This document shows, in pieces, positions 2,953 through 43,253 of a DNA stretch of 64,000 bases. Both the position numbers and the translations under genes were made by a program. This DNA is from Candidatus Staskawiczbacteria bacterium RIFOXYD1_FULL_32_13 (GTDB lineage: Bacteria > Patescibacteriota > Minisyncoccia > Minisyncoccales > Staskawiczbacteraceae): assembly GCA_001820485.1 (NCBI GenBank), contig MHPU01000039.1:30904-94903 (forward strand), written 5' to 3'. Each line of letters starts with the position of its first letter. Positions within the stretch are counted from its first letter, which is position 1. A model generated the notes under the pieces. The model was given only the letters and a program-made list of their open reading frames with translations, was not told where the DNA came from and did no database searches.

Positions 2953-3132
2953 ATTTATAAATATAAATTTCAAGTATTTACATACGATTAAACTACGATC
3001 GTGGTGTAATCGTATGTAGAAATTATATAGATTATATAGATATTTTTATAAGTATATTTTTTATTAATTTTTTTGTAAAAAAACCCGGACCGTCGCAGTG
3101 CAACGATCACGGGTATGAAATGGAACCGTATT

Positions 3133-3543
3133 TCAAAGGTTCCCAAATGCCTTGAGTCTGGTCTTCAAATTTTTGAGCTCGGCTCGAAGCTCAGCGATTT
3201 CGTCTTGTCTTTGCTGGTTGGCTTCGAGCAAATCTTTGATGCTTTGCTCGAGCCGGCGATTTGTGGCTCGCAGTTCATCTGTTATAGCCATTAATTCGCC
3301 GATGTTGTGACGTTGCTCTTCGAGCTTCAGTGCCAGCTGAGCAGACATTGTCAGTCCGAAGGTTTGAAGATTTACGCCATCGCGACCGAAACAGTCGTCT
3401 GAAATCTCGCCGATAGGAGTAGTTGTCTCCGCTATCGTGTCCCGATCGATCAGATGATTGCTCAGCGAGATCAAATCTCCATTCTCTTTGACCAATGCCC
3501 AGTAATGAAAACGACTTTTGAATGTGCAGATAACGACCTTCAT
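3133..3543 (-). CDS. Hypothetical protein in GC-rich islet 1 (coiled-coil C-terminus)
   Basis: A roughly 50% GC block sits in a ~30% GC genome. The second Met (MKVV) has GGAG 9 nt upstream. The C-terminus has a heptad-like pattern (EQSIKDLLEANQQRQDEIAELRAELKNLK). A hairpin plus a T-tract lies on the minus strand just downstream at 3083-3118. Confidence 0.4.
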   Translation of the reverse strand: MKVVICTFKSRFHYWALVKENGDLISLSNHLIDRDTIAETTTPIGEISDDCFGRDGVNLQTFGLTMSAQLALKLEEQRHNIGELMAITDELRATNRRLEQSIKDLLEANQQRQDEIAELRAELKNLKTRLKAFGNL

Positions 3544-3650
3544 TGCAATAATCTCCATGAAGTGTGATGGTGAAAAACCATTTTAAGACTATGTCATATT
3601 TTATATATTGTCAAGTTTACAAAGTATATTATTTAGTGTATTATGATTTT

Positions 3651-4367
3651 ATGATTAAATTTGATGTCATTACAATTTTTCCGAAAATATTCAATTCTTA
3701 CATTGGGGAGAGTTTGATTGCAAGAGCCATTAAGAAAAAATTAATAAAAATAAATATTCATAATTTAAGAAAATGGACTACAGATAATCATCAAACAGTA
3801 GACGGCAGGCCATTTGGTGGAGGATTAGGAATGGTAATGATGGTAGAACCAATATACAAGGCGATCCGCGCTTTGGCGAAATCACAAATCACAAATCACA
3901 AATTACAAACAAATCACAAATCACAAGAAAAAATAAAACGAAAAGTGATTTTATTTACTCCACGGGGAGAGAAGTTTACGCAAAAAATGGCTTTTAAACT
4001 CTCCAAATTAGATCAAATTATTTTTATTTGTGGAAGATATGAAGGAGTTGATGAAAGAGTAGCAGAAAAGATAGCTGATATTAAATTATCTATTGGAGAT
4101 TATGATTTAATGGGTGGAGAATTGCCCACAATGGTTTGTATAGAAGCAATTTCGCGTTTGGTACCTGGAGTTATTGGCAAGGAAAAATTGCTCAAAGAAC
4201 GTATTACAAAATCTGGTGGATTTATTGAATATGCTCAATATACTCGTCCTGAAGTTTTTATAATTAAAGATAGAAAAAAGTGGAAAGTCCCACCAGTTCT
4301 TTTAACTGGAAATCATAAGAATATTGAAGAATGGAAAAAAGCTCATGCAAAAGAAATTTTAGATTAG
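3651..4367 (+). CDS. trmD: tRNA (guanine37-N1)-methyltransferase
   Basis: The N-terminus MIKFDVITIFP and downstream GGGxGMV, YEGVDER and LxGGE motifs match TrmD. The ORF-track start at 3564 is probably too far upstream. Confidence 0.85.
   Translation: MIKFDVITIFPKIFNSYIGESLIARAIKKKLIKINIHNLRKWTTDNHQTVDGRPFGGGLGMVMMVEPIYKAIRALAKSQITNHKLQTNHKSQEKIKRKVILFTPRGEKFTQKMAFKLSKLDQIIFICGRYEGVDERVAEKIADIKLSIGDYDLMGGELPTMVCIEAISRLVPGVIGKEKLLKERITKSGGFIEYAQYTRPEVFIIKDRKKWKVPPVLLTGNHKNIEEWKKAHAKEILD
3879..3925 (+). repeat. In-frame AAATCAC heptamer microsatellite inside trmD
   Basis: The run is AAATCAC x3, AAATTAC, AAAC, AAATCAC x2. It encodes a low-complexity loop (SQITNHKLQTNHKSQ). Confidence 0.7.
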
Positions 4368-4419
4368 CAATAGGCATTGAAAGAATAAGATTTTTGTGAT
4401 ATAAATATAAAATAGATTT

Positions 4420-4502
4420 GGGCAGGTGGCTGAGCAGCAAAGGCAACAGACTGTAAATCTGTCGGGGTTTCCCCTTCATAGGTGCAAGTCCTATCCTGCC
4501 CA
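4420..4502 (+). tRNA. tRNA-Tyr (GTA), long variable arm
   Basis: The acceptor stem is GGGCAGG/CCTGCCC. The anticodon stem ACAGA/TCTGT carries the loop CTGTAAA. There is a CGGGG-TTT-CCCC variable arm and a T arm ATAGG/CCTAT. No CCA is encoded. Confidence 0.75.
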
Positions 4503-4548
4503 CACTTCGAAGAAGTGCCCTGAGCGAAGTCGAAGGGCGTTAAATTAA

Positions 4549-4624
4549 GCCGATGTAGCTCAGGTAGCAGAGCACATTCTTGGTAAGAATGAGGTCCGCA
4601 GTGCAAATCTGCGCATCGGCTCCA
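4549..4624 (+). tRNA. tRNA-Thr (GGT)
   Basis: The acceptor stem is GCCGATG/CATCGGC, the D stem GCTC/GAGC, and the anticodon loop TTGGTAA. The T arm is CGCAG/CTGCG, and CCA is encoded. Confidence 0.85.
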
Positions 4625-4712
4625 TCGGAAGAAACTATAAAGCGTTTAGCTTTTAGCGTCTAGCGTCTAGTATAACTATACCCTATACCCTAAACTCTAT
4701 ACCCTAAATACA

Positions 4713-4874: not shown

Positions 4875-4926
4875 CTATACGGACTTTCTTAAGTTTGAGG
4901 ATATGATTTATCCTAAAACTGCAACT

Positions 4927-5188: not shown

Positions 5189-5189
5189 A

Positions 5190-5690
5190 ATGTTAGTAGA
5201 AAAAATACAAAAACAAAATGTTGGAAACGCCGGAGAATATTATATTGCTTCAAGATTATCTGCTTTGAATTTTGTAGCAACTATAACGCTCGGTCGGGCA
5301 GAAAAATACGACATATTGGCTATTAGCCCAAAAGGTAGGGTTGTTAAATTATCTGTAAAAACTACTCAAGTTGAAAAAGCAAAGGATTTTCCATTATCGC
5401 ACAAAGACGAATGTGGACAATCAGAAGATTTTTATTATGCTTTTGTAAAATTAAATAATTTTACCAAAGATCCTGATTTCTGGGTTATTCCAAGTAAAGT
5501 TTTATGTCCTTTGCTTAAAAATTCTCACGAAAAATGGGGGAATACTCTAAATAGAAAAGGAGAAAAACACGGACATTCAGATGTTAGATTGTTGCCGATT
5601 GAATTAACTGCTGGACAACGACAATATTACCCTGAAAACTGGGAGAAAGATGTTGAAAAATACTATAAAAATTTAAACCAATTATTATGA
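5190..5690 (+). CDS. Hypothetical protein, possibly with a PD-(D/E)xK-like nuclease fold
   Basis: I place the start at MLVEKIQ. A D...(K)LSVK pattern sits after a GNAGEYY segment. The gene is translationally coupled to the downstream PLD-SNF2 gene (ATGA overlap), but its function is not supported. Confidence 0.35.
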   Translation: MLVEKIQKQNVGNAGEYYIASRLSALNFVATITLGRAEKYDILAISPKGRVVKLSVKTTQVEKAKDFPLSHKDECGQSEDFYYAFVKLNNFTKDPDFWVIPSKVLCPLLKNSHEKWGNTLNRKGEKHGHSDVRLLPIELTAGQRQYYPENWEKDVEKYYKNLNQLL

Positions 5691-8600
5691 ATAATTTTAT
5701 TACAAATGCGGAGCAAAAAAACTTAAAAACACGACTTGTTGAGTTAATTAAGAAAAGCGATGAACTCAAATTTTTGGTCGGGTTTTTTTATTTTTCCGGA
5801 ATAAGAGAGCTGTATGAAGGATTGAAAGAAAATCCTAATGTCAAAATAAAAGTTTTAGTTGGCTTAAATGTTGATAAAAATTTAATTGAGTTTGCTGAAA
5901 ATATTGAGGGGCAATCAGATGACGAAAGGGTTTATAATCTTTTTAGTTCTCTGAAAAAATCATTAAATACAAAGGATTTTGATAATCAAGAGTTTTATAA
6001 TCAAGTGAAATATTTTGTTGAATTGATAAAGGAAGAGAGATTGATAATGAGGAAAACATTTAATCCAAATCATTCCAAAGTTTATATTTTTAGATTGGAA
6101 GAGGGGCAGGTTTCAAGGCAGAAATTATTTATTACGGGAAGTAGTAATTTAACAAAAGCTGGATTAACAACACAAGAGGAATTTAATGTAGAGATAAGTG
6201 ATTATGGTTTTGACGATGCAGAAAAGTATTTTGATAATCTTTGGGCAGAGGCGATAAAGATAACAGAAAATGATGTTTTGAGAAAGAAATTAGTAGATTT
6301 GATAGAAAAGGACACGCTTGTAAAAAACATTACCCCGTTTGAAGCATTTGTTCTTGTATTAAAGAACTACCTTGATTTTTATGATAACAAAAAGGAATTA
6401 GGAAGCTCTTTAATTGAGATATTAGAAAATAATGGATATAAAGCCTATCAATATCAATTAGACGCTATAAAGCAAGGATTGGCGATAATAGAGAAGGATA
6501 ATGGGGTTATTCTTGCTGATGTTGTTGGTTTGGGCAAAACGATAATTGCCTGTGCTATTGCTAACCAACTTAAAAGGAGGGGCTTGGTTATTTGTCCTCC
6601 CGGACTGGTGGGAGATAAAAATAGAGCTTCTGGGTGGAAAAAATATCTTGATCAATTCAAGCTGTATAATTTAGATTGGGAAGTAAGGTCTCTTGGAGAA
6701 ATGGAAAACACTTTTGACTTTGTTAAAAAGAATAAAGATATTGAGGTTATTATTGTTGATGAAGCTCATCGTTTTAGAAACGAAGACACTGAAGACTATG
6801 AAATTTTAAAAAATATTTGTCGTGATAAGATTGTAATTTTACTTTCTGCTACTCCGTTTAACAATAAACCAAGTGATATACTTTCTTTGTTGAAGTTATT
6901 TGTTGCTACAAAAAAATCTTTTATAACTCTTGATAATAATCTTGCTAATAAATTTAAGATTTTCAGTGGAACATTTGATAGGCTTGCTTATATTAAAAAG
7001 AATTGGAATTCTCTTAATGAGCAAAAAAGAAAATTAGTTCAGAAATACTATAAGAGTTTTTTTGGTGAAACAGGTAGCGAGAATATTGATTTATCAAAAG
7101 TTAAACAAAAATCTCACTATTTAGCAAAACAAATAAGAGATGTTGTGGAGCCAGTTACCATAAGGCGTAATCGTCTTGATTTACAAAATAACCCATTTTA
7201 TAAAGAAGAGGTAAAAGATTTGTCAAAGATCAAGGATCCGGAGGAATGGTTTTTTGAATTGTCAAAAGAGCAGTCAGATTTTTATGATAGAATTATTAGT
7301 GTTTATTTTGGCGATGAAGAGAACGGAGGAAAATTCAAGGGTGCAATATACAGACCATTTAAATATGAAGTAAAGATTGAAAAAGAGTTAGAAGAAGAAA
7401 AAGATGATAGGGAAACAAATTTTAAAAAATGGCAACAAAAAAACCTGTATGATTTTATGCGTAGATTGTTGGTTAAAAGATTTGAAAGTTCTTTTGGCTC
7501 ATTTGAGAAAAGTATTAAAAATTTTAAGACAATAACAGAAATTGTTTTAAAGTTCATTGAGAAGACCGATAAGTATATTCTTGATAGATATTTACTTGAA
7601 AAAATATACGACCGAGATGATGATGAGATAGAGGCAGAATTGATTGAATTTGCAGAGAAATTAAAGAGAGGAAATTATCCGAAAAACAATCATATTTATG
7701 AATTGAATAAAGATTTTAATGATAAAGAGGGTTTTATTAGGGATATTAAATCAGATCTTTCTCTTTATGACGATATTTTGAAAGAACTTTCAGATTTAAA
7801 ACTCATCAAGAATGACCCAAAATCATTATGCTTGATAGAAAATTTAAAAAAGGACATAAAAAACAAACAAGAAAAGGGAGAGCCCAAAAGGAAAGTAGTT
7901 ATATTCTCAGAATATGTTGATACTATAAAGCATCTTGAACCAACGCTTAAAAAGGAATTTGGAGATAAACTTTTAGTTGTTGCCGGTGATTTATCGCCTC
8001 AAAAAATATCTCAAATCAATAAAAACTTTGATGCTTCGTTTGAAGAGCAAGATAATGATTATGATGTTTTATTGGCTTCTGACCGAATATCAGAAGGATT
8101 TAACCTTAATAGAGCAGGAATAATTGTAAATTATGATATACCCTGGAACCCAGTAAGAGTAATCCAAAGAGTGGGGCGTATAAACCGTATAAGTAAAAAA
8201 GTTTTTAATAATCTTTATATTGCAAACTTTTTTCCAACAGAAAGAGGTTCTCAGCTCGTAAGATCAAGAGAAATAGCACAAAACAAAATGTTTTTAATTC
8301 ATAGTGTTTTGGGAGAAGATGCTAAAATTTTTGATATTGACGAAGAACCAACTCCATCAGGTCTATTTACAAAAATACAGCAAAACCCAGATAATTTGGA
8401 AGAAGAAAGTTTTAATACAAGGGCGTTAAAGAAGTTTGAAGAAATTAAAAAGGAAAATTCACAACTAATTCAAGAAATTGAGAATTATCCTCCAAGAGTT
8501 AAAGTTGCTAAAGAATTTAATGAAAGCGAACTTTTTGTTTTTATTAAGAAAAGTAAACTCTATGTTAGGGGAATAAAATATAATAAAGAGAATAATGAAA

Positions 8601-9049
8601 ATGAAATTTACGATACTACCTTTGAGGATGTATTTAATAGAGTTTTATGTGAGAAAGATGAAAAGCAGTTGCAATTAAGCAATGTGTTTTGGGATAATTA
8701 CGATAAAGCCAAGAATTTTAAAGAAAAATTTGTTCCACCAAGTGTTCAAAGTTTAGAGCAAAGAGCATTGGATAATCTTAAAATAATAATTGCAAATCCA
8801 TCAGAAAAATTATTACCGCATTTAAACTTTTTAAGAACATTAAGAGAAGATATTTTGGATTATGGCACTCTTGCTGATTATACATTTAGAACAATTATTG
8901 ATTTTAAAAATGCAAATGATGAGCAGACTATTTTAGATATTATAGAATTAAAAAATAAAATGGGAGAGAATTATTTGGATAGAGAAAAAGATAATAAAAA
9001 AGATTTATCAAAAGAAATTATTGTTGCTATTGAAAATCAAAAAATATGA
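5687..9049 (+). CDS. PLD (HKD) nuclease-SNF2 family helicase fusion protein
   Basis: The N-terminus has a single HKD motif (HSKVYIF...GSSNLT). The SNF2 part has a DEAH-type motif II (VIIVDEAHRFRN), motif III (LLSATPFNN) and helicase-C motifs (DIPWNPVRVIQRVGRINR). Confidence 0.8.
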   Translation: MNNFITNAEQKNLKTRLVELIKKSDELKFLVGFFYFSGIRELYEGLKENPNVKIKVLVGLNVDKNLIEFAENIEGQSDDERVYNLFSSLKKSLNTKDFDNQEFYNQVKYFVELIKEERLIMRKTFNPNHSKVYIFRLEEGQVSRQKLFITGSSNLTKAGLTTQEEFNVEISDYGFDDAEKYFDNLWAEAIKITENDVLRKKLVDLIEKDTLVKNITPFEAFVLVLKNYLDFYDNKKELGSSLIEILENNGYKAYQYQLDAIKQGLAIIEKDNGVILADVVGLGKTIIACAIANQLKRRGLVICPPGLVGDKNRASGWKKYLDQFKLYNLDWEVRSLGEMENTFDFVKKNKDIEVIIVDEAHRFRNEDTEDYEILKNICRDKIVILLSATPFNNKPSDILSLLKLFVATKKSFITLDNNLANKFKIFSGTFDRLAYIKKNWNSLNEQKRKLVQKYYKSFFGETGSENIDLSKVKQKSHYLAKQIRDVVEPVTIRRNRLDLQNNPFYKEEVKDLSKIKDPEEWFFELSKEQSDFYDRIISVYFGDEENGGKFKGAIYRPFKYEVKIEKELEEEKDDRETNFKKWQQKNLYDFMRRLLVKRFESSFGSFEKSIKNFKTITEIVLKFIEKTDKYILDRYLLEKIYDRDDDEIEAELIEFAEKLKRGNYPKNNHIYELNKDFNDKEGFIRDIKSDLSLYDDILKELSDLKLIKNDPKSLCLIENLKKDIKNKQEKGEPKRKVVIFSEYVDTIKHLEPTLKKEFGDKLLVVAGDLSPQKISQINKNFDASFEEQDNDYDVLLASDRISEGFNLNRAGIIVNYDIPWNPVRVIQRVGRINRISKKVFNNLYIANFFPTERGSQLVRSREIAQNKMFLIHSVLGEDAKIFDIDEEPTPSGLFTKIQQNPDNLEEESFNTRALKKFEEIKKENSQLIQEIENYPPRVKVAKEFNESELFVFIKKSKLYVRGIKYNKENNENEIYDTTFEDVFNRVLCEKDEKQLQLSNVFWDNYDKAKNFKEKFVPPSVQSLEQRALDNLKIIIANPSEKLLPHLNFLRTLREDILDYGTLADYTFRTIIDFKNANDEQTILDIIELKNKMGENYLDREKDNKKDLSKEIIVAIENQKI

Positions 9050-12000
9050 GTAGAGAAATTTTAGAGGATATAATCAAAGATTTTAATCCGGAAAAATTTG
9101 TTAGATTTTTTAGAGCAAAAAACTCTTCTACTTTTTTGCCTATTAAAGAGAATTTAGATCATTATAAAGATGCCAATTTTAAGGACGGGATTAAATTAGG
9201 GGAAATAAAGTTTTCAGAAGATGATAAATTGATAATTTGTGCGTTTAAGGCAGGCAAGTCTCTTTCTGAAAGGAGTGGTAAGAAGGCTCAATATGAACTT
9301 GGCAGAAAGGTTTTAAAGGAAAATCAAATTGATGCAGGAATTTTTATATTTTATGATGAGGAAAAAAAGTTTCGTTTTTCTTTAATTTATACAAATTATT
9401 TAGAGAGTAAGAAGAAAGATTGGAGTGCTTTTCGCAGATATACATATTTTGTCGGGGAGGGAACAAATAAGACATTTTTAAAACAAATTGGGGAAAAAGA
9501 TTTCTCAACCTTGAATAATGTTAAAAATGCCTTTTCAATTTCAGCTGTAACAGATATTTTTTATAATGATTTTTTTGCGGAATACGATAAAATTTTAAAA
9601 TCTGTTGTCATCGTAAATAAAATTGATAACACAGAGAGGGCAGAAAGCTTTGTTCTTTTATTTGCTATAAGGACTATTTTTTTAGGATTTATTCAAAAGA
9701 AAAGATGGATTGGAGATAATGAAAATTTTATTCAAGATTTTTTTACAGAGTATAAGAATAAATATTTTAAAGAAGATAAATTCTATAAAAGGTGGCTTTG
9801 CCCATTGTTTTTTGAAGCATTAAATTCGCCTCCCGGAAGAAAGGTTGCATATAATAACAATGAATTCTCAAAGGAAACAGAGCAACAGTTACAAATGTCG
9901 CCATATTTGAATGGGGGTCTTTTTAAGAAGAAAAATGACTTTGATGATCAGGGCTGGATAATTCCCGACAAAGAAATAGATAGTTTTTTTAATTTCCTTT
10001 TTTCTTATAGTTTTACAATAGAAGAAAACTCTCCCGAAGACGAGGACTTACAATTAAATCCGGAGTTTTTAGGGATTATTTTTGAAAGATTAGTTAATAA
10101 AAAAGATGGAGCCGTTTATACTCCAAGAACAGAAGTTGATTTAATGTGTAGATTAAGTTTGGTTAAATGGTTGCAAAAAAATCTTAAAGTTCAAGTAAAA
10201 ATAGATGACATTTACAAATTATTATTTAAGGAAAGTGATAAAGAACAACAAACAATAGGCGATTTATCAAAAGAAGATGCTGAGTATGTTTTGAAATTAT
10301 TGGAAAATGTTATTGTATGCGACCCTGCTGTTGGTTCAGGTGCTTTTCTTGTAGGAATGATGCAGGTTTTAGATGAGGTTGGATATAATCTTAATGAGAA
10401 AATAGGGGCTAAAAATAATAATGTTTTTGATAGAAAAAAGCAAATTATTGGTAGATCTCTTTATGGCGTAGAAGTAAAGGAATGGGCTGTTTGGATATGT
10501 CAGTTGCGTTTATGGTTATCATTATTTGTTGAAGCTCCAGATGATTTTAAAAATTCAATGGAAGCAATTTTACCAAGTTTAGATTTTAAAGTAAGGAAAG
10601 GCGATAGCCTTGTTCAAAGGGTTGGTTCAAAGTTATTTCCAATTACCGGACACATACAAATACAAAATAATTCTATAAAAGCAAAGATAACTCAATTAAA
10701 AAGTTTAAAAACAGAATACTACAATAACAAAGCAACAGTTTCAGATTGGGAGTTGAGGCAAAAGGAAAAACAAATTTATGATGATATTATAAATATTGAA
10801 ATTGATGAAAAACAAAATCAATTAAATAGTTTTAAAAACTACAAATCCAAAAAAACCGCTTCAATGTTTTCAGATATGACAGAGCCAGATCAAACAGAAC
10901 TTGAATTAGATAAAGATAAAATAGAAAAAATAAAATTGGAATTAGAGGATTTAAAAGAACAAAAAGCAATTTTATCAAAAGGAGAAAAGCCTTTGGTTTG
11001 GAGTATAGAGTTTGCCGAAGTTTTTGCAGAAAAAGGCGGATTTGATATTATTATTGGAAATCCACCATATGTTAGACAAGAGAGTATTTCAGATCCAACA
11101 GAAAAGATAAAAGATAAAAAAATATACAAAAACCTTCTTTCTGAAATGGTAAAAATGGATTTTCCAGATGATTTTTTAGCAAAGACAAAGATTAACGCTC
11201 AATCCGATTTATACACTTATTTTTATATTCGTGGACTGCGACTTTTAAACCCGTTGGGAGTGCATACTTTTATTTGTTCTAATTCGTGGTTAGATGTTGG
11301 TTATGGTGCTTGGCTTCAAGAGTTTTTATTAAAAAGATGCCCGGTTGATTTAATAATTGATAATCACGCAAAAAGAAGTTTTGAAGTAGCTGATGTTAAT
11401 ACTATAATTTCTATTGTTCACGCACCGCAAAAAAAAGTTGATGAAAATCATTTGGTAAAATTTGTTGCTTACAAAAGACCATTTGAAGAGATAATGTTTA
11501 CTGAAGATTTACTTATAGTTGAGAATACAAAAAAGGTTTTGGCGAATGATGGTTTTAGAGTTTATCCAATATCAGTAAAAGATTTAATAGATTTTGGCAC
11601 AGAATATGAGAATGAAAATCAGGAAAAATTAAAATCTGGAAAATACATTGGTGATAAGTGGGGAGGTAAATATCTCCGTGCTCCGGATATTTTCTTTACA
11701 ATTTTAGAGAAAGGAAAAGATAAGTTAGTAAAACTTGGCGATATCGCAAAAGTGAGCTTTGGAATTAAAACAGGAGTAAATGAATTTTTTTATCTTGATG
11801 ATGAAGCAATCAAAAAATGGGGGATTGAAAAGGATTTTTTAAAACCTGTCATTAAAAGTCCTCGTGAATGTAGAAGCATCTTGGTTGATCCTAAAGATTT
11901 AAAATACAAAATTTTTATTTGTAATAAAAGTAAAGAAGAGTTAAATGGAACAAATGCGTTGAAGTATATTGAATGGGGAGAAAAGCAAAAAACCAAAGAG

Positions 12001-12567
12001 GGCGTTTATTGGAAAAATGTTCCAAGCGTTTCTTCGCGTAAATTTTGGTGGGAAGCATCAATCCAAGAGTTTGCTTTTTGTTCATATCCAATGATAAATA
12101 ATATTAGGCTTATTTTTTTCAAAAATAACTTTATTCTAAATGACGCTAATTTGGTTGGAATTTATCCAAAAAAAGATTTTGGAAATTCTTTACTTGTTTC
12201 CTTAAATTCAACATATAATATGATAAATATGGAACTAATGGGTATAGCAAATTTAGGAGAAGGGGCGATAAAGCAAAATCCGATTTATATCAAAAAATCA
12301 ATCATTATTGACCCTGAAATAATACCAAACTATAAAGTAGAACCGTTTTTTAATCGGGAAATTTATTCAATTTTCGAGGAGTGTGGAATTGATCCAAAAT
12401 CGGAAACCCCCATTGAAGAGCAAGAACCAAAACCGTTACCGGATAGGGCAGAGTTAGACAATATAGTTTTTGATGCTTTGGGACTTAATAATGATGAACG
12501 TAAAGAAGTTTATCGTTCCGTTTGTCGTCTTGTTTGGAATAGAATAAGTAAAGCTAAGAGTGTTTAA
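9046..12567 (+). CDS. Large N6-adenine DNA methyltransferase (gamma-class, Eco57I/MmeI-like architecture), possibly with an N-terminal nuclease domain
   Basis: It has motif I VCDPAVGSGAFLV and motif IV IIGNPPYV. At 1173 aa it is the size of a Type IIG or DISARM/BREX MTase. A D...EEK segment near the N-terminus could be a PD-ExK site. It overlaps the upstream gene by 4 nt. Confidence 0.8.
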   Translation: MSREILEDIIKDFNPEKFVRFFRAKNSSTFLPIKENLDHYKDANFKDGIKLGEIKFSEDDKLIICAFKAGKSLSERSGKKAQYELGRKVLKENQIDAGIFIFYDEEKKFRFSLIYTNYLESKKKDWSAFRRYTYFVGEGTNKTFLKQIGEKDFSTLNNVKNAFSISAVTDIFYNDFFAEYDKILKSVVIVNKIDNTERAESFVLLFAIRTIFLGFIQKKRWIGDNENFIQDFFTEYKNKYFKEDKFYKRWLCPLFFEALNSPPGRKVAYNNNEFSKETEQQLQMSPYLNGGLFKKKNDFDDQGWIIPDKEIDSFFNFLFSYSFTIEENSPEDEDLQLNPEFLGIIFERLVNKKDGAVYTPRTEVDLMCRLSLVKWLQKNLKVQVKIDDIYKLLFKESDKEQQTIGDLSKEDAEYVLKLLENVIVCDPAVGSGAFLVGMMQVLDEVGYNLNEKIGAKNNNVFDRKKQIIGRSLYGVEVKEWAVWICQLRLWLSLFVEAPDDFKNSMEAILPSLDFKVRKGDSLVQRVGSKLFPITGHIQIQNNSIKAKITQLKSLKTEYYNNKATVSDWELRQKEKQIYDDIINIEIDEKQNQLNSFKNYKSKKTASMFSDMTEPDQTELELDKDKIEKIKLELEDLKEQKAILSKGEKPLVWSIEFAEVFAEKGGFDIIIGNPPYVRQESISDPTEKIKDKKIYKNLLSEMVKMDFPDDFLAKTKINAQSDLYTYFYIRGLRLLNPLGVHTFICSNSWLDVGYGAWLQEFLLKRCPVDLIIDNHAKRSFEVADVNTIISIVHAPQKKVDENHLVKFVAYKRPFEEIMFTEDLLIVENTKKVLANDGFRVYPISVKDLIDFGTEYENENQEKLKSGKYIGDKWGGKYLRAPDIFFTILEKGKDKLVKLGDIAKVSFGIKTGVNEFFYLDDEAIKKWGIEKDFLKPVIKSPRECRSILVDPKDLKYKIFICNKSKEELNGTNALKYIEWGEKQKTKEGVYWKNVPSVSSRKFWWEASIQEFAFCSYPMINNIRLIFFKNNFILNDANLVGIYPKKDFGNSLLVSLNSTYNMINMELMGIANLGEGAIKQNPIYIKKSIIIDPEIIPNYKVEPFFNREIYSIFEECGIDPKSETPIEEQEPKPLPDRAELDNIVFDALGLNNDERKEVYRSVCRLVWNRISKAKSV

Positions 12568-12579
12568 ATTACTAAAAAT

Positions 12580-16140: not shown

Positions 16141-16141
16141 A

Positions 16142-26110: not shown

Positions 26111-26123
26111 CTAATTTTATAAA

Positions 26124-32844: not shown

Positions 32845-32851
32845 AACACTC

Positions 32852-32884
32852 GTCATTGCGAGGAGCAAAGCGACGAAGCAATCT
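32852..32884. repeat. Truncated copy of the GTCATTGCGAGG MITE-like repeat
   Basis: It reads GTCATTGCGAGGAGCAAAGCGACGAAGCAATCT, which is only the left arm. Confidence 0.55.
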
Positions 32885-32908
32885 AAACAGGGGTAAAACC
32901 CTGTTTTT
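32885..32908 (+). terminator. Rho-independent terminator after rplL
   Basis: The stem AAACAGGG/CCCTGTTT has a GTAAAA loop and is followed by TT. Confidence 0.65.
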
Positions 32909-33029
32909 GCTTGCAAAATTTTATAGTCGGAGTAACATTAACTAATATGACCAACGCACAACCGACATGGTGCCGTGTTGCGTCGCTGGCCAATGTCCTT
33001 TCTTTTAGGCATTTGCCTGGAGGGGTACG

Positions 33030-33263
33030 ATGGCCGATTTGGAATTTACTAAGAAAAATTTTCGGGCGTTGTATTGGCTGTGGAAAAACTACTTGTCTTC
33101 TGCTAAAGGAATGGCAACTGAAGTAGTTGAAGGGGCTGGGCGGTTGTATAGTGTTTTGATCTTTCAAATTCATTGTGAGGACAAAAACTCTGAATTTGAC
33201 AAGCCGATTTCCGATCGTGCACGGATGTTGTGGCAACAATTCTTGGCATATATCACTATTTGA
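33030..33263 (+). CDS. Hypothetical protein in GC-rich islet 4
   Basis: It is a 77-aa ORF in a roughly 45% GC block. GGAGG lies 6 nt upstream of the ATG. A hairpin GGGCTTTGCGGAGCCC plus a T-tract follows at 33290-33318. Confidence 0.4.
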   Translation: MADLEFTKKNFRALYWLWKNYLSSAKGMATEVVEGAGRLYSVLIFQIHCEDKNSEFDKPISDRARMLWQQFLAYITI

Positions 33264-33289
33264 CTTTCGTGATATTGCCAAGAAGGAAG

Positions 33290-33318
33290 AGGGCTTTGCG
33301 GAGCCCTTTTTGTTTTTT
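33290..33318 (+). terminator. Rho-independent terminator of the islet-4 ORF
   Basis: The stem GGGCTTTG/CGGAGCCC is followed by TTTTTGTTTTTT. Confidence 0.6.
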
Positions 33319-33342
33319 ATATTTTTTGGTAATATATAATAT

Positions 33343-34686: not shown

Positions 34687-37152
34687 ATGTCAATTTTAAC
34701 AAAAATTTTTGGTGATCCAAATGAAAAGTATATAAAGAGTTTACAGCCAATTGTAGAAAAAATAAATTCTTTTGAAATAGAATTTTCAAAACTTTCATTA
34801 CAAGAAATTAAAGAAAAAACCTTTCGACTTCGCTCAGGGCTAGCAAGTGGGAAAACTTTAGACGATATTCTCCCAGAGGCTTTTGCTTTGGTTAGAGAAG
34901 CAGGAAAAAGAACTTTAAATCAAAGGCATTTTGATAGTCAATTAATTGGAGGAATTGTTTTACATCAAGGTAAAATTGCAGAAATGAGAACCGGAGAAGG
35001 TAAAACTTTGTCTGCTACTTTGCCAGCTTATTTAAATGCACTTTTAGGTAAAGGAGTTCATATTGTTACAGTTAACGAATATTTAGCAAAAAGAGATATG
35101 ATTTGGATGGGACAGATTTATAATGCATTAGGATTAACTGCAGGATGCATTACAAATTCAGGAGGTTTTATTTATGATGAAAACTATAAAAATGAAAACG
35201 AAAAAGATGCAAAGAGAGATATAGTGGGAGGATTTTTAGTGGTGGAAGATTTTTTAAAACCAGTTTCAAAAAAAGAAGCTTATAGTGCTGATATAACATA
35301 TGGAACTAATAATGAATTTGGTTTTGATTATTTAAGAGATAATATGGTTTTTGATTTAGAACAAAAGGCACAAAGAGATTTTAATTTTGCAATTGTGGAC
35401 GAAGTAGATTCAATTTTAATTGACGAAGCAAGAGTTCCTTTAATAATTTCTGGAGAAGCTGAGCCTGCAACTGAAAAATATTCATTATTTGCAAAAATTG
35501 TATCAAGTTTGGAAAAAGAAACAGATTATGTTTTAGATGAAAAATTAAAAACAGTCACTTTTACAGAAGAAGGTCAAAATAAAGTGGTAAATAAGTTGGG
35601 CCAAGATCCTTGGCAAGATAATGACATTACAGCTACTCATCAATTGGAATCAGCTTTAAGAGCTAAGGCTTTGTTTATTAAAGATAGAGATTATGTTGCA
35701 CAAAATGGCGAGATTTTAATTATTGATGAATTTACAGGAAGAATTTTGCCTGGTAGAAGATGGTCAGCTGGTTTGCATCAAGCAGTTGAAGCTAAGGAAG
35801 GAGTAAGAGTGCAACCCGAGTCTGTAACTTATGCCACAATAACTTTTCAAAATTATTTTCGCCTTTATAAAAAATTATCTGGAATGACAGGAACTGCTTT
35901 TACTTCAGCTGAAGAATTTGATAAAGTTTATAAATTAGAAGTAGCAATTGTGCCAACAAATAAAACTATTGTTAGAAAAGATTTGCCAGATAAAATTTTT
36001 AAATCTGAAGCTGGAAAATTTAAGGCAGTTGTAAGGGAAATAAAAGAATTAAATCAAAGGGGCCAACCAATTTTAGTTGGAACAAGATCTGTAGAAAGAA
36101 ATGAATATCTTGGAAGATTACTTGAAATGGAAGGAATTAAGCACGAAATTTTAAATGCCAAAAATCATCAAAGAGAAGGAGAAATAATTGCTCAAGCTGG
36201 CAGAAAAGGAGCTGTAACAATTGCTACAAATATGGCAGGTCGAGGGGTTGACATCATACTTGGTGGCAACCCCGTAGACCCTGAGCATAGTCGAAGGGTC
36301 CGTGAATTGGGAGGTTTACACGTTATGGGTACAGAAAGACACGAAGCTCGCAGAATTGATAATCAATTAAGGGGCAGGTCTGGTAGACAGGGAGATCCAG
36401 GAACTACTCAATTTTTTGTTTCTTTAGAAGATGATTTAATGCGTATTTTTGGAGGAGATAGAATAAAGAATTTAATGACCACTTTCAATGTAGCCGAAGA
36501 CGAACCAATTTCAGCTGGGATTTTGTCCGGTGCTTTAGAGTCAGCTCAAAGTAAAATAGAAGGTTTTAATTTTGATTCTCGCCATCATTTGCTTGAATAT
36601 GATGATGTAATGAATAAGCATAGAGAAATAATATATAAAAAAAGAAATGAATTTTTAGAAAAATCAGTATTGGAAGGCCCGTCCTTGCAACAATATGTTC
36701 TAGAGCTTGTAAAAAAAGCTGGGCACACAGAACAAGAATATTTAAATAAAGAAAAAGAATTAGGTGAGCAAAATATGAGGAATGTAGAGAAATTTGTGTG
36801 TTTAAAAGTTTTAGATACTTTATGGCAAGATCATTTAAGCAATATGGAACATATGAGAGATTCTGTAAGACTTAGAGCTTATGGTGGAAAAGATCCTTTA
36901 GTTGAGTATAAAAATGAGGGACACCGAATGTTTGGCGAACTATTAAAAGAAATGGATTTTGAAATAGCACAAGATATTATGAGTGCTGGTTTAACGAAGC
37001 CATCTCAACAGATTAATACAGATTTGAAAACAGATTTACACAGATCACAGACTGGCGGAAAACAAATCGGGCGGAACGATCCATGTCCGTGCGGAAGCGG
37101 AAAGAAATGGAAAAATTGCGGATTAATTAATGCCCCGGAGCACAAAAAATAA
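34687..37152 (+). CDS. secA: Preprotein translocase ATPase SecA
   Basis: The Walker A reads MRTGEGKT. A DEVDSILIDEARVPLIISG motif is present, and the C-terminal zinc-binding tail reads CPCGSGKKWKNC. Confidence 0.9.
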   Translation: MSILTKIFGDPNEKYIKSLQPIVEKINSFEIEFSKLSLQEIKEKTFRLRSGLASGKTLDDILPEAFALVREAGKRTLNQRHFDSQLIGGIVLHQGKIAEMRTGEGKTLSATLPAYLNALLGKGVHIVTVNEYLAKRDMIWMGQIYNALGLTAGCITNSGGFIYDENYKNENEKDAKRDIVGGFLVVEDFLKPVSKKEAYSADITYGTNNEFGFDYLRDNMVFDLEQKAQRDFNFAIVDEVDSILIDEARVPLIISGEAEPATEKYSLFAKIVSSLEKETDYVLDEKLKTVTFTEEGQNKVVNKLGQDPWQDNDITATHQLESALRAKALFIKDRDYVAQNGEILIIDEFTGRILPGRRWSAGLHQAVEAKEGVRVQPESVTYATITFQNYFRLYKKLSGMTGTAFTSAEEFDKVYKLEVAIVPTNKTIVRKDLPDKIFKSEAGKFKAVVREIKELNQRGQPILVGTRSVERNEYLGRLLEMEGIKHEILNAKNHQREGEIIAQAGRKGAVTIATNMAGRGVDIILGGNPVDPEHSRRVRELGGLHVMGTERHEARRIDNQLRGRSGRQGDPGTTQFFVSLEDDLMRIFGGDRIKNLMTTFNVAEDEPISAGILSGALESAQSKIEGFNFDSRHHLLEYDDVMNKHREIIYKKRNEFLEKSVLEGPSLQQYVLELVKKAGHTEQEYLNKEKELGEQNMRNVEKFVCLKVLDTLWQDHLSNMEHMRDSVRLRAYGGKDPLVEYKNEGHRMFGELLKEMDFEIAQDIMSAGLTKPSQQINTDLKTDLHRSQTGGKQIGRNDPCPCGSGKKWKNCGLINAPEHKK

Positions 37153-37228
37153 CTTTTTTGTAAAAGAAAACCCGGGCCTCGACGAATCAAGGCGCACGGG
37201 TTGAGTACTCGCGATGAGGTTGGTTTTC

Positions 37229-37636
37229 TCAGCACAGAACCAAAACATCGCCGGCTGAGAATCCAAAATCATCCATGTAGAATTGCCAGTCCTCGGGACC
37301 TTCGCCGACCATGGGCTTGGCCCATATTAGCGTGGGGACGCAATTGTCTCCGTCGGTGTAGTACCAGTGTTCCGGAAACACCAAAGTCTTTCCTCGTAGT
37401 TCCGTGGGGATCCTGTCTTTCTGTGTTAGCATGCTTCGGGCATGGCTAGCGCCAGTGCGTTTTCCCAGCTTACCGACGATTCCCACCACTTCCTGACTTT
37501 TCCCACTCTGTTCGATGGGGAAGAAATTGGGTCGGAATTCCTGACCCAACTCGGCCGGCACCTCTCCTTGGCAAACCCAGTCATCCCTGCGCGGTTCCCA
37601 CAAATCAGTCATTCGGAAAACCACATTGGTTTCCAT
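37229..37636 (-). CDS. Hypothetical protein in GC-rich islet 2
   Basis: It is a 135-aa ORF in a roughly 52% GC block. AAGGAG lies 6 nt upstream of the ATG. A minus-strand hairpin plus TTTTTT tail sits at 37153-37195. Confidence 0.4.
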   Translation of the reverse strand: METNVVFRMTDLWEPRRDDWVCQGEVPAELGQEFRPNFFPIEQSGKSQEVVGIVGKLGKRTGASHARSMLTQKDRIPTELRGKTLVFPEHWYYTDGDNCVPTLIWAKPMVGEGPEDWQFYMDDFGFSAGDVLVLC

Positions 37637-37718
37637 TTCGTTCTCCTTGCAATAGGGGGGGTAAAAACTTTAGCACAATTCTATAGTTTTATTATATCAT
37701 ATTATATAATCTTGTCAA

Positions 37719-38945
37719 GTGAAAAATGAAGAAATTTCAAAATCTAACACAAACAGAATAATAGCACATTTGGATATGGATGCATTTTTTGCGAGTATAG
37801 AAGAAGCAGATAGCCCAATTTTTAAAGGAAAACCAATTGCAGTGGGATCTGAGGCGCTAAATGGTAATGGAAGGGGGGTTGTTTCTACTGCAAATTATAA
37901 AGCTCGCGAATATGGTATTCATTCTGCTTTGCCCATTTCACAGGCATGGCAACTCTCACAAAAAGCCAAAAAAGAAGGCAAGGATGAAGTGATTTTTTTA
38001 CCAGTAGATATGGAAAGATATGAGCAAGTATCTTGTGGAATTTATGATATAATAAAAAAATACGCTAATGTTGTGGAACCAGCTAGCATTGATGAATTTT
38101 ATTTCGATTTAACACCCAGTTTGTCATTGCGAGGAGCGACCGAAGGGAGCGACGCGGCAATCCAGAGTAGTAGCACGAATTCTAGATTGCTACGTCGTCC
38201 TGCAAAGGCGGGACTCCTCGCAATGACAGGTGAGGACGATGAGTGGAAACAAGCAGAGAAAATTTGTTTGAAAATAAAAAAAGAAATAAAAGAAAAATTT
38301 AAAATTACTTGTTCTGTGGGCCTTGCTCCTAATAAATTAATTTCTAAAATTGCTGCTGGCAAGAAAAAGCCAGATGGATTTGTTATTGTGCGACAGGAAG
38401 AGGTAGAAGTTTTTCTAGAACCATTGTCAGTGCGTGAATTGCCGGGAGTAGGCCCTAAGACAGGGGAAGTTTTAAGAAAAAATGGCGTAGAAAAAATAAA
38501 AGATTTAAAAAAGTTTTCGTACGAGGATTTATATGATATACTTGGAAAATATGGATTAGATTTGTATTATAAAGCTAAAGGAATTGATGACTCAGAACTT
38601 ATTGAAAGTAGGGAGGTAAAATCTATTGGAGAACAAACAACTTTTGATAAGGACACTCAAGATGCAGTTTATATTGGAGATATTTTTGAAAAACTGTGTT
38701 CTGATGTATTTTTAAGATTTAAAGAATCAGGATTTAAAAGTTTTAAAACAATTGCAATTACTGTAAGATTTAAAGGATTTGAAACAAAAACTACAGCCAA
38801 GACTTTAAAAGAATCAATTAGTAGCGAGAAAATATTTAAATTAGAAGCTTTAAAACTTTTATTACCATATTTAGATAGCAGGAAAAATCCAAATAATAAA
38901 TTAATTAGATTAATTGGCGTTAGTATAAAAAATTTTAATAATTAA
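37719..38945 (+). CDS. dinB: DNA polymerase IV (Y-family) carrying an in-frame 35-aa MITE-derived insertion
   Basis: The N-terminus reads HLDMDAFFASIE. The catalytic SIDEFYFDLT segment is present, and the later motifs are intact. Codons 38123-38227 are the repeat element. Confidence 0.85.
   Translation: MKNEEISKSNTNRIIAHLDMDAFFASIEEADSPIFKGKPIAVGSEALNGNGRGVVSTANYKAREYGIHSALPISQAWQLSQKAKKEGKDEVIFLPVDMERYEQVSCGIYDIIKKYANVVEPASIDEFYFDLTPSLSLRGATEGSDAAIQSSSTNSRLLRRPAKAGLLAMTGEDDEWKQAEKICLKIKKEIKEKFKITCSVGLAPNKLISKIAAGKKKPDGFVIVRQEEVEVFLEPLSVRELPGVGPKTGEVLRKNGVEKIKDLKKFSYEDLYDILGKYGLDLYYKAKGIDDSELIESREVKSIGEQTTFDKDTQDAVYIGDIFEKLCSDVFLRFKESGFKSFKTIAITVRFKGFETKTTAKTLKESISSEKIFKLEALKLLLPYLDSRKNPNNKLIRLIGVSIKNFNN
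38123..38227. repeat. Complete 105-bp copy of the GTCATTGCGAGG...CCTCGCAATGAC MITE-like palindromic repeat, inside the dinB CDS
   Basis: The terminal inverted repeat is GTCATTGCGAGGAG...CTCCTCGCAATGAC. The internal arms GCGACGCGGCAATCCAGAG and CTAGATTGCTACGTCGTC are complementary. Confidence 0.7.
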
Positions 38946-41159: not shown

Positions 41160-41173
41160 GTTGTCTAGAAAGG

Positions 41174-41201
41174 TTGACTATTTATAGAAAAAGAGTAAAA
41201 T
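41174..41201 (+). promoter_or_regulatory. Candidate sigma70 promoter upstream of secD
   Basis: The -35 TTGACT and the -10 TAAAAT are separated by a 16-nt spacer. Confidence 0.45.
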
Positions 41202-41248
41202 ATAACTATTATAAAAAATGAATAATAAAAATTAAAATTCAAACTTAC

Positions 41249-42670
41249 ATGAAATCTAAATATTATATTCTTATAGCTATTATTGTGTTAGCTTTTTTAG
41301 TTGGAAATTTTGCAAACCCAATTTACTTTAATAAATCTGTTGATTTTTTAAATTCTAAATTTTCTTGGACACTGCCACATTTTTGGAACAAACCATTTAC
41401 TTTAGGTCTTGATTTGCAAGGTGGTGTAAATTTAGTTTATCAGGCAGATTTAAGCCAAACAATTGATAAGGATGGGGCTATGGCAGGTTTGAGAGATGTA
41501 ATTGAAAGAAGAGTTAATATGTTTGGAGTATCTGAGCCTGTTGTGCAAATTCAGGGCGAGGATAGGCTTTTGGTAGAGCTTCCTGGAGTGAAAAATGTAC
41601 AAGAAGCAATACAAATGATTGGAGAAACTCCATATTTAGAGTTTTTGGAGCAGAGAGAAGAAAAAGATTCTCAAATAATTTTAGATAAAATGAAAGAAAT
41701 TCAAACAGCACAGGAGAAAGGAGAAGATATTTCAAAAATTATAGATTGGCAAATAGCGTTGCAAAGTCCTTATTTTAAGCCAACAGAATTAACTGGAAAA
41801 TATTTAAAATCTGCTAATGTTATTTTCAATCAAACAACATTTAAACCTGAAATTGAACTTCAATTTAATGATGATGGAGCTAAGTTGTTTGAAACTATTA
41901 CAGAAAGAAATGCAAATAAACCTTTGGCAATATTTTTAGATGGAGCTTCGATTATAGATACATCGGGAGATAATAAAATTGATGGAAATGATTTATACGC
42001 TCCAATTGTTCAAGGTAAAATTTCTGGCGGGCGAGCTGTAATTACAGGAAATATGTCAACACAAACTGCAAATGATATTAAGAGACGATTAAATTCAGGA
42101 GCTTTGCCAGTTAAAATTGGTGCGCCAATTTCTCAAGAAACAGTAGGACCTACTTTAGGATCTGTTTCTTTGCAAAAGTCTTTATGGGCAGGAGTTTGGG
42201 GTCTTTTAGCTGTAGCTTTGTTTATGATTGTATTTTATAGATTGCCAGGACTTTTGGCTTCTATTGCTTTGGTAATTTATGTTGCAATTGTTTTATCTAT
42301 ATTTAAATTAGTGCCTGTAACTTTAACTTTAGCTGGAATTGGTGGATTTATTTTGTCTATTGGAATGGCAGTTGATGCTAATATTTTGATTTTTGCTAGA
42401 ATGAAGGAAGAAATAAATAATGGTAAAAGCTTAGGACTTGCAATTGATGAAGGTTTTAAAAGAGCCTGGCCATCAATTAGAGATAGTAACTTAAATTCTT
42501 TGATCGTTTGTGCAATTTTATTTTTATTTGCAACCTCGTTTATTAAGGGATTTGCTTTGACTTTGAGCATTGGTATTTTAGTAAGTTTATTTTCAGCAAT
42601 ATTCATCACTAGAATTTTACTACAAATATTTATTGGAAATTGGGCAGAAAAAGTCAAGTGGCTTTTGTAA
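41249..42670 (+). CDS. secD: Protein translocase subunit SecD
   Basis: It has an N-terminal TM, a periplasmic domain, and a C-terminal 6-TM bundle (GLDLQGG...GPTLG...IAGIGGFILSIGMAVDANILIFARMKEE). Confidence 0.9.
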   Translation: MKSKYYILIAIIVLAFLVGNFANPIYFNKSVDFLNSKFSWTLPHFWNKPFTLGLDLQGGVNLVYQADLSQTIDKDGAMAGLRDVIERRVNMFGVSEPVVQIQGEDRLLVELPGVKNVQEAIQMIGETPYLEFLEQREEKDSQIILDKMKEIQTAQEKGEDISKIIDWQIALQSPYFKPTELTGKYLKSANVIFNQTTFKPEIELQFNDDGAKLFETITERNANKPLAIFLDGASIIDTSGDNKIDGNDLYAPIVQGKISGGRAVITGNMSTQTANDIKRRLNSGALPVKIGAPISQETVGPTLGSVSLQKSLWAGVWGLLAVALFMIVFYRLPGLLASIALVIYVAIVLSIFKLVPVTLTLAGIGGFILSIGMAVDANILIFARMKEEINNGKSLGLAIDEGFKRAWPSIRDSNLNSLIVCAILFLFATSFIKGFALTLSIGILVSLFSAIFITRILLQIFIGNWAEKVKWLL

Positions 42671-42701
42671 AATAATTTTGTAATTTGAAAAGTCTCTTTC
42701 T

Positions 42702-42782
42702 GTCATTGCGAGGAGCCCGCAGGCGACGTGGCAATTTAGAAGTTTGAGATTGCTTCGGCTATTGCGATAGCCTCGCAATGAC
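42702..42782. repeat. 81-bp copy of the MITE-like palindromic repeat
   Basis: It reads GTCATTGCGAGGAGCCCGCAGGCGACGTGGCAATTTAGAAG...CCTCGCAATGAC and lies directly after the secD stop. Confidence 0.65.
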
Positions 42783-42874
42783 GGAAGAGAACTAATTTTG
42801 TAAAAAAAGAGACGCTGGGTCGTCCGAGAAAAATTCGGATTACTCCCAGCGCCATGCTGACGAAAAAGCGGTTT

Positions 42875-43162
42875 TCACGCCGGGTATTCGTCAACTGGAC
42901 GTTGCCACGGTTCTCGCTCATTGCTTTTCGGTCGGCTACGATGATCATCGGTTCCCTGTTTTATTGGGTCGCTTTCTTCCTTTTCTTCCGTGGGTTGTTC
43001 GCCATCGAACAGCACAAGTGCTTCACGATTTGCCAGATCTACGGCGACTATTGAGACCGATCCGCCCCTCTTCAGTGCTTCGTTGAGTCTTCTCACAAAG
43101 CATTCACTCGAGCGACCAGTTTCCACTTCGCGAACTGTTGGTTCTATGAGTTCCACATACAT
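42875..43162 (-). CDS. Hypothetical protein in GC-rich islet 3
   Basis: The 95-aa ORF starts at MYVELI, with AAGGAG 6 nt upstream. A minus-strand hairpin (GCTGGG/CCCAGC) plus TTTTTTTACAAAA lies downstream at 42790-42850. Confidence 0.4.
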   Translation of the reverse strand: MYVELIEPTVREVETGRSSECFVRRLNEALKRGGSVSIVAVDLANREALVLFDGEQPTEEKEESDPIKQGTDDHRSRPKSNEREPWQRPVDEYPA

Positions 43163-43253
43163 AATCATCTCCTTAAAATCAGGGATTCGAAACCATAGAA
43201 ATAATATCAAAAATAAAATTAATTGTCAAATAAAATATTAAAAAAATAAAAAT

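Follow-up and report, generated by a model that had tools for sequence, protein, structure and literature searches.

GC-rich, Shine-Dalgarno-led single-gene islets between core genes of a Staskawiczbacteria genome, one of them homologous to the target of a diversity-generating retroelement

The genomes of bacteria of the Candidate Phyla Radiation (CPR) are generally regarded as compact and streamlined, with little room for accessory genes. Horizontally acquired ORFan islets consist of short, lineage-restricted genes of atypical composition and codon usage, which lack homologues and are present or absent between close relatives; ORFans are usually more AT-rich than their host. Here, we analyzed a 64-kb stretch of DNA (the window) of Candidatus Staskawiczbacteria (Parcubacteria, CPR) from Rifle groundwater, together with an extended region of ∼83 kb made of the window and 10 kb on each side, and we characterized four GC-rich islets that each carry one small open reading frame (ORF), designated O1 to O4. 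With a probability of about 0.55, we read them as four unrelated, self-contained, monocistronic expression units located at the 3' ends of housekeeping genes. ORFan islets are the closest category overall, and the islets share the traits listed above. They differ in being far GC-richer than the host and in being led by Shine-Dalgarno (SD) sequences in an SD-less genome, and O2 has been retained in two species with no sign of amelioration.

The closest architectural analogue is the phage moron, or "more DNA" unit of the HK97 gp15 type. A moron is a lone gene, inserted between genes that neighbor each other in relatives, which brings its own promoter and a factor-independent terminator and differs in base composition from the genes around it (PMC3594210). 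Like morons, the islets have their own promoter, ORF, and intrinsic terminator (the O1 promoter being weak and called by eye), and their composition departs from that of their flanks, with a GC content at third codon positions (GC3) of 0.42 to 0.60 versus 0.20 ± 0.03. Unlike morons, they are located outside any prophage, between core genes (secD/secF, secA/dinB, the trmD operon, and L7/L12/murB); their composition does not just differ from that of the host but is richer in GC, and their ORFs have no PHROG or phage relatives. As for the insertion site, the SecA and DinB genes abut in a deletion-like manner in one relative (locus L009) and are separated by another gene in a second (L014), and the O2 site is filled in L009. 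Two further systems bear on the islets: integron cassettes, which likewise consist of one small ORF each and have a palindrome at their 3' end, and the C-type-lectin variable proteins of diversity-generating retroelements (DGRs), such as Mtd, TvpA, TaqVP, and AvpA, which are the closest category for O3.

We scanned the window for base composition with a 150-bp sliding window and a GC threshold of at least 0.42. Against an overall GC content of 31.3%, four segments emerged (Table 1), with islet GC given overall as 43 to 53%. The remaining GC bumps correspond to a tRNA pair (4420-4624) or fall inside conserved genes, so that the four islets are the sole non-tRNA, noncore segments of the window at or above the threshold. 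Their flanking genes, for islets 1 to 4 in order, encode KhpA and TrmD, L7/L12 and MurB, SecA and DinB, and SecD and SecF. An earlier, sequence-only reading of this stretch had described four GC-rich islets with one small ORF each, three of them opposing the local gene direction, and both points are borne out by the scan, the ORF calls, and the ORF strands: O1, O3, and O4 are on the minus strand, and three islet units face the host gene upstream of them and point away from the one downstream. As a correction to that reading, part of the GC signal on the left of islets 2 and 4 comes from a separate palindromic repeat (Table 1). Codon usage also sets the ORFs apart. GC3 was 0.52, 0.44, 0.60, and 0.42 for O1 to O4 versus 0.203 ± 0.032 (maximum, 0.257) for 35 host genes, and an index modeled on the codon adaptation index ranged from 0.33 to 0.49 versus a host minimum of 0.64. 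In all four ORFs, GC content was higher at the first than at the second codon position, which is the usual coding pattern.

Each islet also carries its own expression signals. Each unit starts with a sigma70-type promoter in the AT-rich flank (putative for O1), followed by a GGAG-type SD, the small GC-rich ORF, and an intrinsic terminator. The SDs stand at spacings of 6 to 9 nt in all four islets, whereas among 51 native starts a single one shows as much as AGGA at positions −20 to −5 (Fisher p = 1.5e-5), confirming the claim that good SDs are common to the islets and rare in native genes. Every other SD-plus-start pair in the window falls within a long gene. About half of the Parcubacteria are reported to lack the anti-SD motif (PMC9297842), and the SD contrast in the window fits this report. 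Only one other SD-preceded ATG (AGGAG, 5 nt) starts an ORF of 100 codons or more; it is found on the minus strand at 48000-48305, and this 101-aa ORF is antisense within a 577-aa gene at 47316-49049. A hairpin and a T-tract follow each of the four islet ORFs, so the attribution of a terminator to each unit also holds; native terminators in the window end in TTTTTGT. A likeness between the O1 and O3 terminators (ACCCGTG-N19-CCGGGTTTT) was considered as a sign of common origin and judged too generic. Together, these results support the view of the islets as autonomous units of one gene each, which depart from the host in composition, codons, and translation signal.

Table 1. Features of the four islets and adjoining elements, in window coordinates
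Feature	Position	Strand	Details
GC-rich segment, islet 1	3058-3581		45% GC
O1 ORF	3133-3543	−	136 aa (141 aa if start 3558); GGAG 9 nt upstream
O1 terminator	3077-3114	−	hairpin 3083-3114, then T7 (plus-strand A-run 3077-3083); scan: 9-pair stem and CGGGTTTTTT; minimum free energy fold
O1 putative promoter	3586-3614	−	TTGACA-17-TAGTCT in AT-rich right flank; by-eye reading
trmD promoter	3616-3644	+	TTTACA-17-TATTAT; in promoter scan; back-to-back with putative O1 promoter
GC-rich segment, islet 2	32835-33170		43% GC
Palindromic repeat beside islet 2	32847-32885		separate from islet 2; adds to its left GC signal
O2 promoter	32911-32939	+	TTGCAA-17-TAACAT; kept in L009 (alignment)
O2 ORF	33030-33263	+	77 aa; GGAGG 6 nt upstream
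O2 terminator	33286-33321	+	terminator scan; kept in L009
GC-rich segment, islet 3	37025-37707		49% GC
O3 terminator	37161-37201	−	hairpin 37170-37201, then TTTTCTTTT
O3 ORF	37229-37636	−	135 aa; AAGGAG 6 nt upstream
O3 promoter	37691-37718	−	TTGACA-16-TATAAT with TG, 12/12; best sigma70 match in 32-44.5 kb
GC-rich segment, islet 4	42670-43213		46% GC
Palindromic GC-rich repeat, GTCATTGCGAGGAGC family	42698-42786		between secD and O4 terminator; flanked by direct TAATTTTGTAA
O4 terminator	42802-42853	−	long hairpin ∼42811-42852, then T7
O4 ORF	42875-43162	−	95 aa (97 aa from first ATG at 43168); AAGGAG 6 nt upstream
O4 promoter	43201-43229	−	TTGACA-17-TATTAT with TG, 11/12; second-best sigma70 match in 32-44.5 kb

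Only the sudden change in composition could give reason to regard the islets as assembly chimeras, an explanation whose probability we consider vanishingly small and for which we found no support. The index lists the O3 protein in 42 assembly blocks, which stem from different samples and were built with different assemblers, and O3 lies between secA and dinB in all 23 contigs that we read. Eight aligned loci are 99.7 to 100% identical to the window, junctions included, and the same junctions occur in contigs from many samples and three assembly pipelines. Neighboring-gene look-ups likewise reproduced the contexts of O1 and O4 across assemblies, and the promoter, SD, and terminator are coherently positioned at the edges of each islet. 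As more than 40 independent assemblies reproduce the islets, we agree with the sequence-only reading, which had judged chimerism unlikely, and exclude a chimeric assembly. Near-clonality of the population, in which apparent protein "variants" were differing start calls plus two single substitutions, made the calculation of dN/dS among strains impossible.

GC-rich DNA has few chance stop codons, and the islets could instead be structured noncoding RNAs, GC-rich within an AT-rich genome, with incidental ORFs. Compared with dinucleotide shuffles, ORF length gave p values of ∼0.002 (O1), 0.07 (O2), 0.011 (O3), and 0.03 (O4), that of O2 leaving some room for this explanation. Fold z-scores of −3.9 and −5.6 for islets 1 and 2, and of −2.2 for the copy of islet 2 in L009, also favor it, but those of islets 3 and 4 were only −1.7 and −1.0, and Rfam gave no match in the islets at the gathering score or even at an E value of ≤1. 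The correctly spaced SD of each of the four islets and the coding pattern of codon-position GC further argue against RNA, as do the protein homologues and confident predicted fold of O3 and the conservation of O2 as a protein with the same ORF length. We therefore consider RNA genes highly improbable and take all four ORFs to be protein coding, O2 being the least certain. For O3, this rests on remote homologues sharing 11 invariant residues and the start Met and on a model with a predicted local distance difference test (pLDDT) score of 87; for O2, it rests on protein-level similarity at the same site in L009.

Structure prediction gave O1 a small beta N-terminal domain followed by a helix of ∼70 residues, and O4 has a structured N-terminal half followed by a charged tail. 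Searches of Pfam, NCBIfam, PHROGs, and PADLOC returned no match for O2 to O4 and only coiled-coil noise for O1. In a word-index search of a 5.8-billion-protein index, O1, O3, and O4 were found in their own population only, and O1 and O4 are ORFans recovered from this population alone. Viral origin was negative in IMG/VR scans, in tblastn against GenBank phages, and in a fold search of BFVD, and a cross-comparison of the islet ORFs with ∼1 Mb of fetched loci revealed no further families.

One metagenome scan and one genome scan yielded only three syntenic relatives (L009, L013, and L014), none of which spans the KhpA-TrmD or SecD-SecF sites. The closest other species recovered, L009, is a Staskawiczbacteria metagenome-assembled genome from Loclat, whose core proteins are 74 to 93% identical to those of the window. 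It carries an O2 homologue at the same L12-MurB site (38% identity over 47 aa; E value, 4e-10), the amino acid identity of the orthologues being only 34 to 38%. The L009 frame has 77 codons (∼74 aa from the SD-proximal ATG), and the SD, promoter, and terminator are kept, as is a GC3 of 0.45 versus 0.21 for its host. The earlier reading had set its cassette idea against the case in which related genomes carry the same ORFs at the same loci with host-like GC. For islet 2, a homologous ORF does occupy the same locus in the sister species, but the copy is still GC-rich and not host-like.

The SecA-DinB site is a variable slot, which holds O3 in the window, nothing in L009, where secA and dinB overlap by 11 nt, and a hemerythrin-like gene of host-like GC in the more distant L014. 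A C-terminal SecA tail (CG[LM][IL]N..EH..) is common to the window (37100-37760) and L014 (4160-4270) and missing in L009 (7640-7770). Because the window and L014 share this tail, the overlap in L009 is probably a secondary deletion and not a pristine empty site.

GC-rich islets were also observed elsewhere. L009 has one of its own at 11636-12347, with a 180-aa minus-strand ORF (GC3, 0.66) that has no Pfam match; it follows a metallophosphatase gene and is flanked by TTTTGTATAAAA and TTTTGTTAAAA, and the window has 90 bp at this place. In the same genome as the window and just outside it (∼71.4-73.7 kb on the window scale; L093, 19000-21250), a 2-kb island of 45 to 54% GC contains three plus-strand ORFs of 267, 80, and 285 aa, the last being ParB-like with DGRHR; the island ends in a hairpin and TTTTTTATTTTGTAAAAG, followed by a tRNA gene. 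Two AT-rich, CPR-like contigs contain GC-rich islets as well, one with a 93-aa Cys-rich ORF between uvrA and rnhB (L097, 14313-14705) and the other with a 125-aa ORF (L033, 7371-7748). GC-rich islets therefore recur, vary from one species to another, and are of different ages, and single-ORF GC-rich islets may be widespread beyond this genome.

A full HMMER scan of 1.8 billion representatives retrieved seven true homologues of O3, at 30 to 38% identity, including P0014 (E value, 2.8e-5). The alignment of the family has 11 invariant residues in addition to the start Met. The family has no match in Pfam, and a sequence profile of it gave no result against the PDB. The AlphaFold model of O3 (pLDDT, 87; pTM, 0.84), built from only eight sequences, shows a weak resemblance to folds of the C-type lectin-like domain (CTLD) and formylglycine-generating enzyme (FGE) types, including that of TvpA. 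One member of the family (P0014/P0021/P0023; loci L102 and L105 to L107) adjoins genes for bAvd and an RVT_1 reverse transcriptase (RT). At L105, a 132-nt variable repeat (VR) forms the 3' end of the target gene, the template repeat (TR) is located 468 nt downstream, and 16 of the 20 TR/VR mismatches are at TR adenines. Judged by these features, the L105 element is a canonical DGR, and O3 accordingly belongs to a new, Pfam-less family of DGR variable proteins. The complete DGR occupies 143-2629 of this AT-rich, CPR-like contig (also present in L102, L106, and L107), in the order target gene, TR, bAvd, and RT; the VR is followed by an 8-bp hairpin with a 4-nt loop and is identical in four assemblies.

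What links O3 to known DGR variable proteins, besides the resemblance in predicted fold, is its homology to this family member, whose VR is C-terminal and which is accompanied by a cognate TR and by adjacent bAvd and RT genes. This homology raised the question of whether O3 is itself a still-active DGR target served by a TR and an RT elsewhere in the genome, an explanation that concerns islet 3 only. CPR genomes have a DGR clade of their own (PMC8144416), the family member at L105 shows adenine-specific mismatches, the last 150 nt of O3 are poorer in A than the rest of the ORF (0.21 versus 0.28), and a hairpin spans the O3 stop codon, all of which agree with an active target. Against this, neither the window nor its 83-kb extension contains a TR-like repeat of O3, and no RT or Avd was found in the 83 kb by tblastn with the L105 RT and Avd or as RVT_1 or bAvd in the gene tables. 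Moreover, the assembled O3 sequence is identical in all eight contigs compared, the sole variant lying outside the VR, and the end of O3 is without the GC-rich block resembling an initiation of mutagenic homing sequence (GGTCGGCGCCCGC) that is common to the L105 VR and TR. Active diversification of O3 thus seems unlikely. As the 83 kb are devoid of a TR, Avd, or RT and the eight contigs are identical, we read O3 as a stand-alone ligand-binding protein, either retired from diversification or served by a remote TR. It differs from described DGR variable proteins in these respects, in showing no visible diversification, and in lacking a Pfam match for its family.

The sequence-only reading had likened the islets to integron cassettes sharing an insertion or termination module, on the basis of a common junction word. 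This word, TTTTGTAAAA, is found on the plus strand at 3071-3080, 37156-37165, and 42796-42805, where the terminators of the minus-strand islets O1, O3, and O4 end; the first copy abuts the O1 terminator, and the second starts 4 nt past the secA stop codon. The window contains 9 copies versus 2.7 expected (3.3-fold), a count reached by 1 of 100 shuffles. In L009, the near-copy TTTTTGTATAAAA adjoins the islet in the same way, at its terminator end, and the ends of the L009 islet and the L093 island described above would also be compatible with site-specific cassettes inserting at TTTTGTAAAA. However, the word is not specific to the islets, since native sites include 45372 (after a native terminator), 42663 (overlapping the secD stop codon), 5441, and 61160. 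Its A-run half merely complements the T-tract of the islet terminators, and it is always on the plus strand of the chromosome, whatever the orientation of the islet. Because the plus-strand island of L093 ends in TTTTTTATTTTGTAAAAG while the minus-strand islets carry TTTTGTAAAA, the word follows the orientation of the chromosome, and we take it to belong to the host, as sequence of gene 3' ends or intergenic regions where islets possibly land by preference, and not to be a site borne by cassettes.

Other hallmarks of a shared recombination module were likewise missing, and this part of the earlier reading was not supported. No tyrosine integrase is annotated in the 83 kb, where Pfam annotations cover most genes, and the sole recombinase there is a large serine recombinase at 24312-25934, 7 kb off and beside tRNA-Trp. 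The attC core GTTRRRY was found at 1 of 8 islet edges, which equals the background (1.25 per kb). No consistent terminal inverted repeat or target-site duplication was seen at the islet edges, only short, AT-rich, inconsistent repeats; at the right-hand edges there is no consistent repeat, and TTGTCAA is the −35 hexamer. Unlike integron cassettes, the islets lack IntI, attI, and attC, have their own promoters, and are scattered over 40 kb between core genes, mostly antisense to their neighbors and with no array, and their 3' hairpins, which differ in sequence, are ordinary terminators followed by T-tracts. Integron-like or other site-specific cassettes are thus very unlikely to account for the islets.

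We also considered miniature inverted-repeat transposable elements and insertion sequence-type elements and rejected them: the islet bodies are unique, with no repeats in the 83 kb, consistent terminal repeats or target duplications are lacking, and the multicopy palindrome is a separate neighbor. This palindrome belongs to the GTCATTGCGAGGAGC family, with 7 hits versus 0.37 expected (at 32852, 38123/38213, 42702/42768, 47184, and 51589 in the window) and a further occurrence in L009 (8952-9036). The copy between secD and O4 is a separate element outside the O4 unit, and the direct TAATTTTGTAA around it is a possible target duplication. One inverted pair (38123/38213) is in frame within dinB and adds ∼45 residues.

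On the reading that we favor, the islets have a moron-like build in a core chromosomal context and would be single-gene genomic islets. Their source would be a gene pool not yet sampled, from which they arrived on separate occasions through illegitimate and not site-specific recombination at the 3' ends of genes, and they may be expressed from strong promoters. The arrival of O2 would predate the divergence from the Loclat species, O3 is missing in L009 and L014, and O1 and O4 have been recovered from this population alone. The ligand-binding role proposed for O3 may have been inherited from a DGR-target ancestry.

Several results weigh against this reading. The search for donors of the four ORFs found no donor lineage for any of them. 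Comparison with relatives established that O3 is absent from L009 and L014 but yielded no clean empty site, the SecA-DinB overlap in L009 resembling a secondary deletion and the L12-MurB site being occupied there too. The −10 hexamer of O1 is weak and was not listed by the promoter scan, so that its promoter call is tentative. In addition, O2 orthologues in two species hold a GC3 of ∼0.45 (hosts, 0.20 to 0.21) and an SD at 34 to 38% amino acid identity. At L105, the lectin-like part of the target (51 to 63% GC) and the TR (51%) are GC-rich beside an AT-rich avd (27%), RT (30%), and host genes (33 to 38%). Since the O2 orthologues keep their GC3 and SD and the L105 target and TR stay GC-rich beside AT-rich avd and RT, these results suggest that the composition of the islets need not be a trace left by import but can be a trait that is maintained.

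The O3 family as a whole points in the same direction. Among seven distinct members with available DNA, six are markedly GC-richer than their contig (64 versus ∼38%, 48 versus 33%, 52 versus 35%, 50 versus 40%, 47 versus 34%, and, in the window, 53 versus 31%), one 975-bp contig being uninformative. The homologues are SD led where their neighbors could be judged, and those neighbors are mostly without SD. No member of the family was found in a GC-rich genome. Because the family is GC-rich in 6 of 7 AT-rich contigs, including within a DGR with AT-rich avd and RT, the inference that a GC-rich gene has been recently imported is weakened. We weighed the explanation that SD-poor, AT-rich Parcubacteria maintain a special class of small accessory genes, DGR targets included, in a GC-rich and SD-led state. 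Structured GC-rich mRNAs would need an SD, or selection or a retroelement-linked process would hold the composition. The persistence of high GC and SD in the O2 orthologues and in an O3 family only 30 to 38% identical, and the contrast within a single DGR, favor this explanation. However, no mechanism is known to hold GC3 high in the non-VR part of such a gene, O1 and O4 are without any homologues, O3 is absent from L009 and L014, GC3 is uneven among the islets (0.42 to 0.60), and few cases were available; genes transferred time and again within a mobile pool that has not been sampled would also look alike. We therefore regard a maintained trait as doubtful, though a more serious competitor to separate acquisition of the four units than any other considered here.

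The window contains other features of interest. A full-length match to the LOOT RNA (Rfam RF03000; 91.5 bits versus a gathering score of 46.4) is located on the plus strand at 17020-17140, upstream of a 159-aa ORF with no Pfam match. The large serine recombinase (Resolvase, Recombinase, and Zn ribbon domains) adjoins tRNA-Trp (26040-26111), and upstream of it, a defense-like block (5687-16972) encodes a PLD and SNF2 helicase protein of 1,120 aa, an MmeI/Eco57I-type methyltransferase of 1,173 aa, a 1,186-aa protein, and an SNase. The block, the recombinase, and tRNA-Trp may constitute one integrated element. A conjugation-like region (47316-63964) encodes two TrwB/TraG-type ATPases, AbiEii, MerR/HTH_17, and three 577-aa paralogues (47316, 52331, and 55185). 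We compared this region across loci L093 and L094. The L094 assembly is without a block of ∼5.4 kb that is present in the window (577 aa, 204 aa, AbiEii, 587 aa, and 112 aa), and there is therefore structural polymorphism in the population.

Our results place complete, foreign-style expression units within conserved operons of a CPR bacterium, including between secD and secF, where they are stable across many samples. The SD contrast makes such genes easy to flag in lineages poor in SDs and raises the question of how SD-led genes are translated in an SD-poor host. The link between islet 3 and DGRs adds a new, previously unannotated family of variable proteins, whose genes are consistently rich in GC, even where the adjacent avd and RT are AT-rich. 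A bolder view, which we think improbable, is that SD-poor Parcubacteria keep a minority of small accessory genes GC-rich, SD led, and strongly promoted, possibly including a lectin-like, DGR-diversified family, so that composition is a functional signature and not a scar of transfer. Such a state would be a second expression regime, or it would be linked to retroelements, for example, through cDNA-derived insertion of whole transcripts at TTTTGTAAAA A-runs. For CPR genomes in general, our findings are a warning that compositional islands are not automatically recent transfers.

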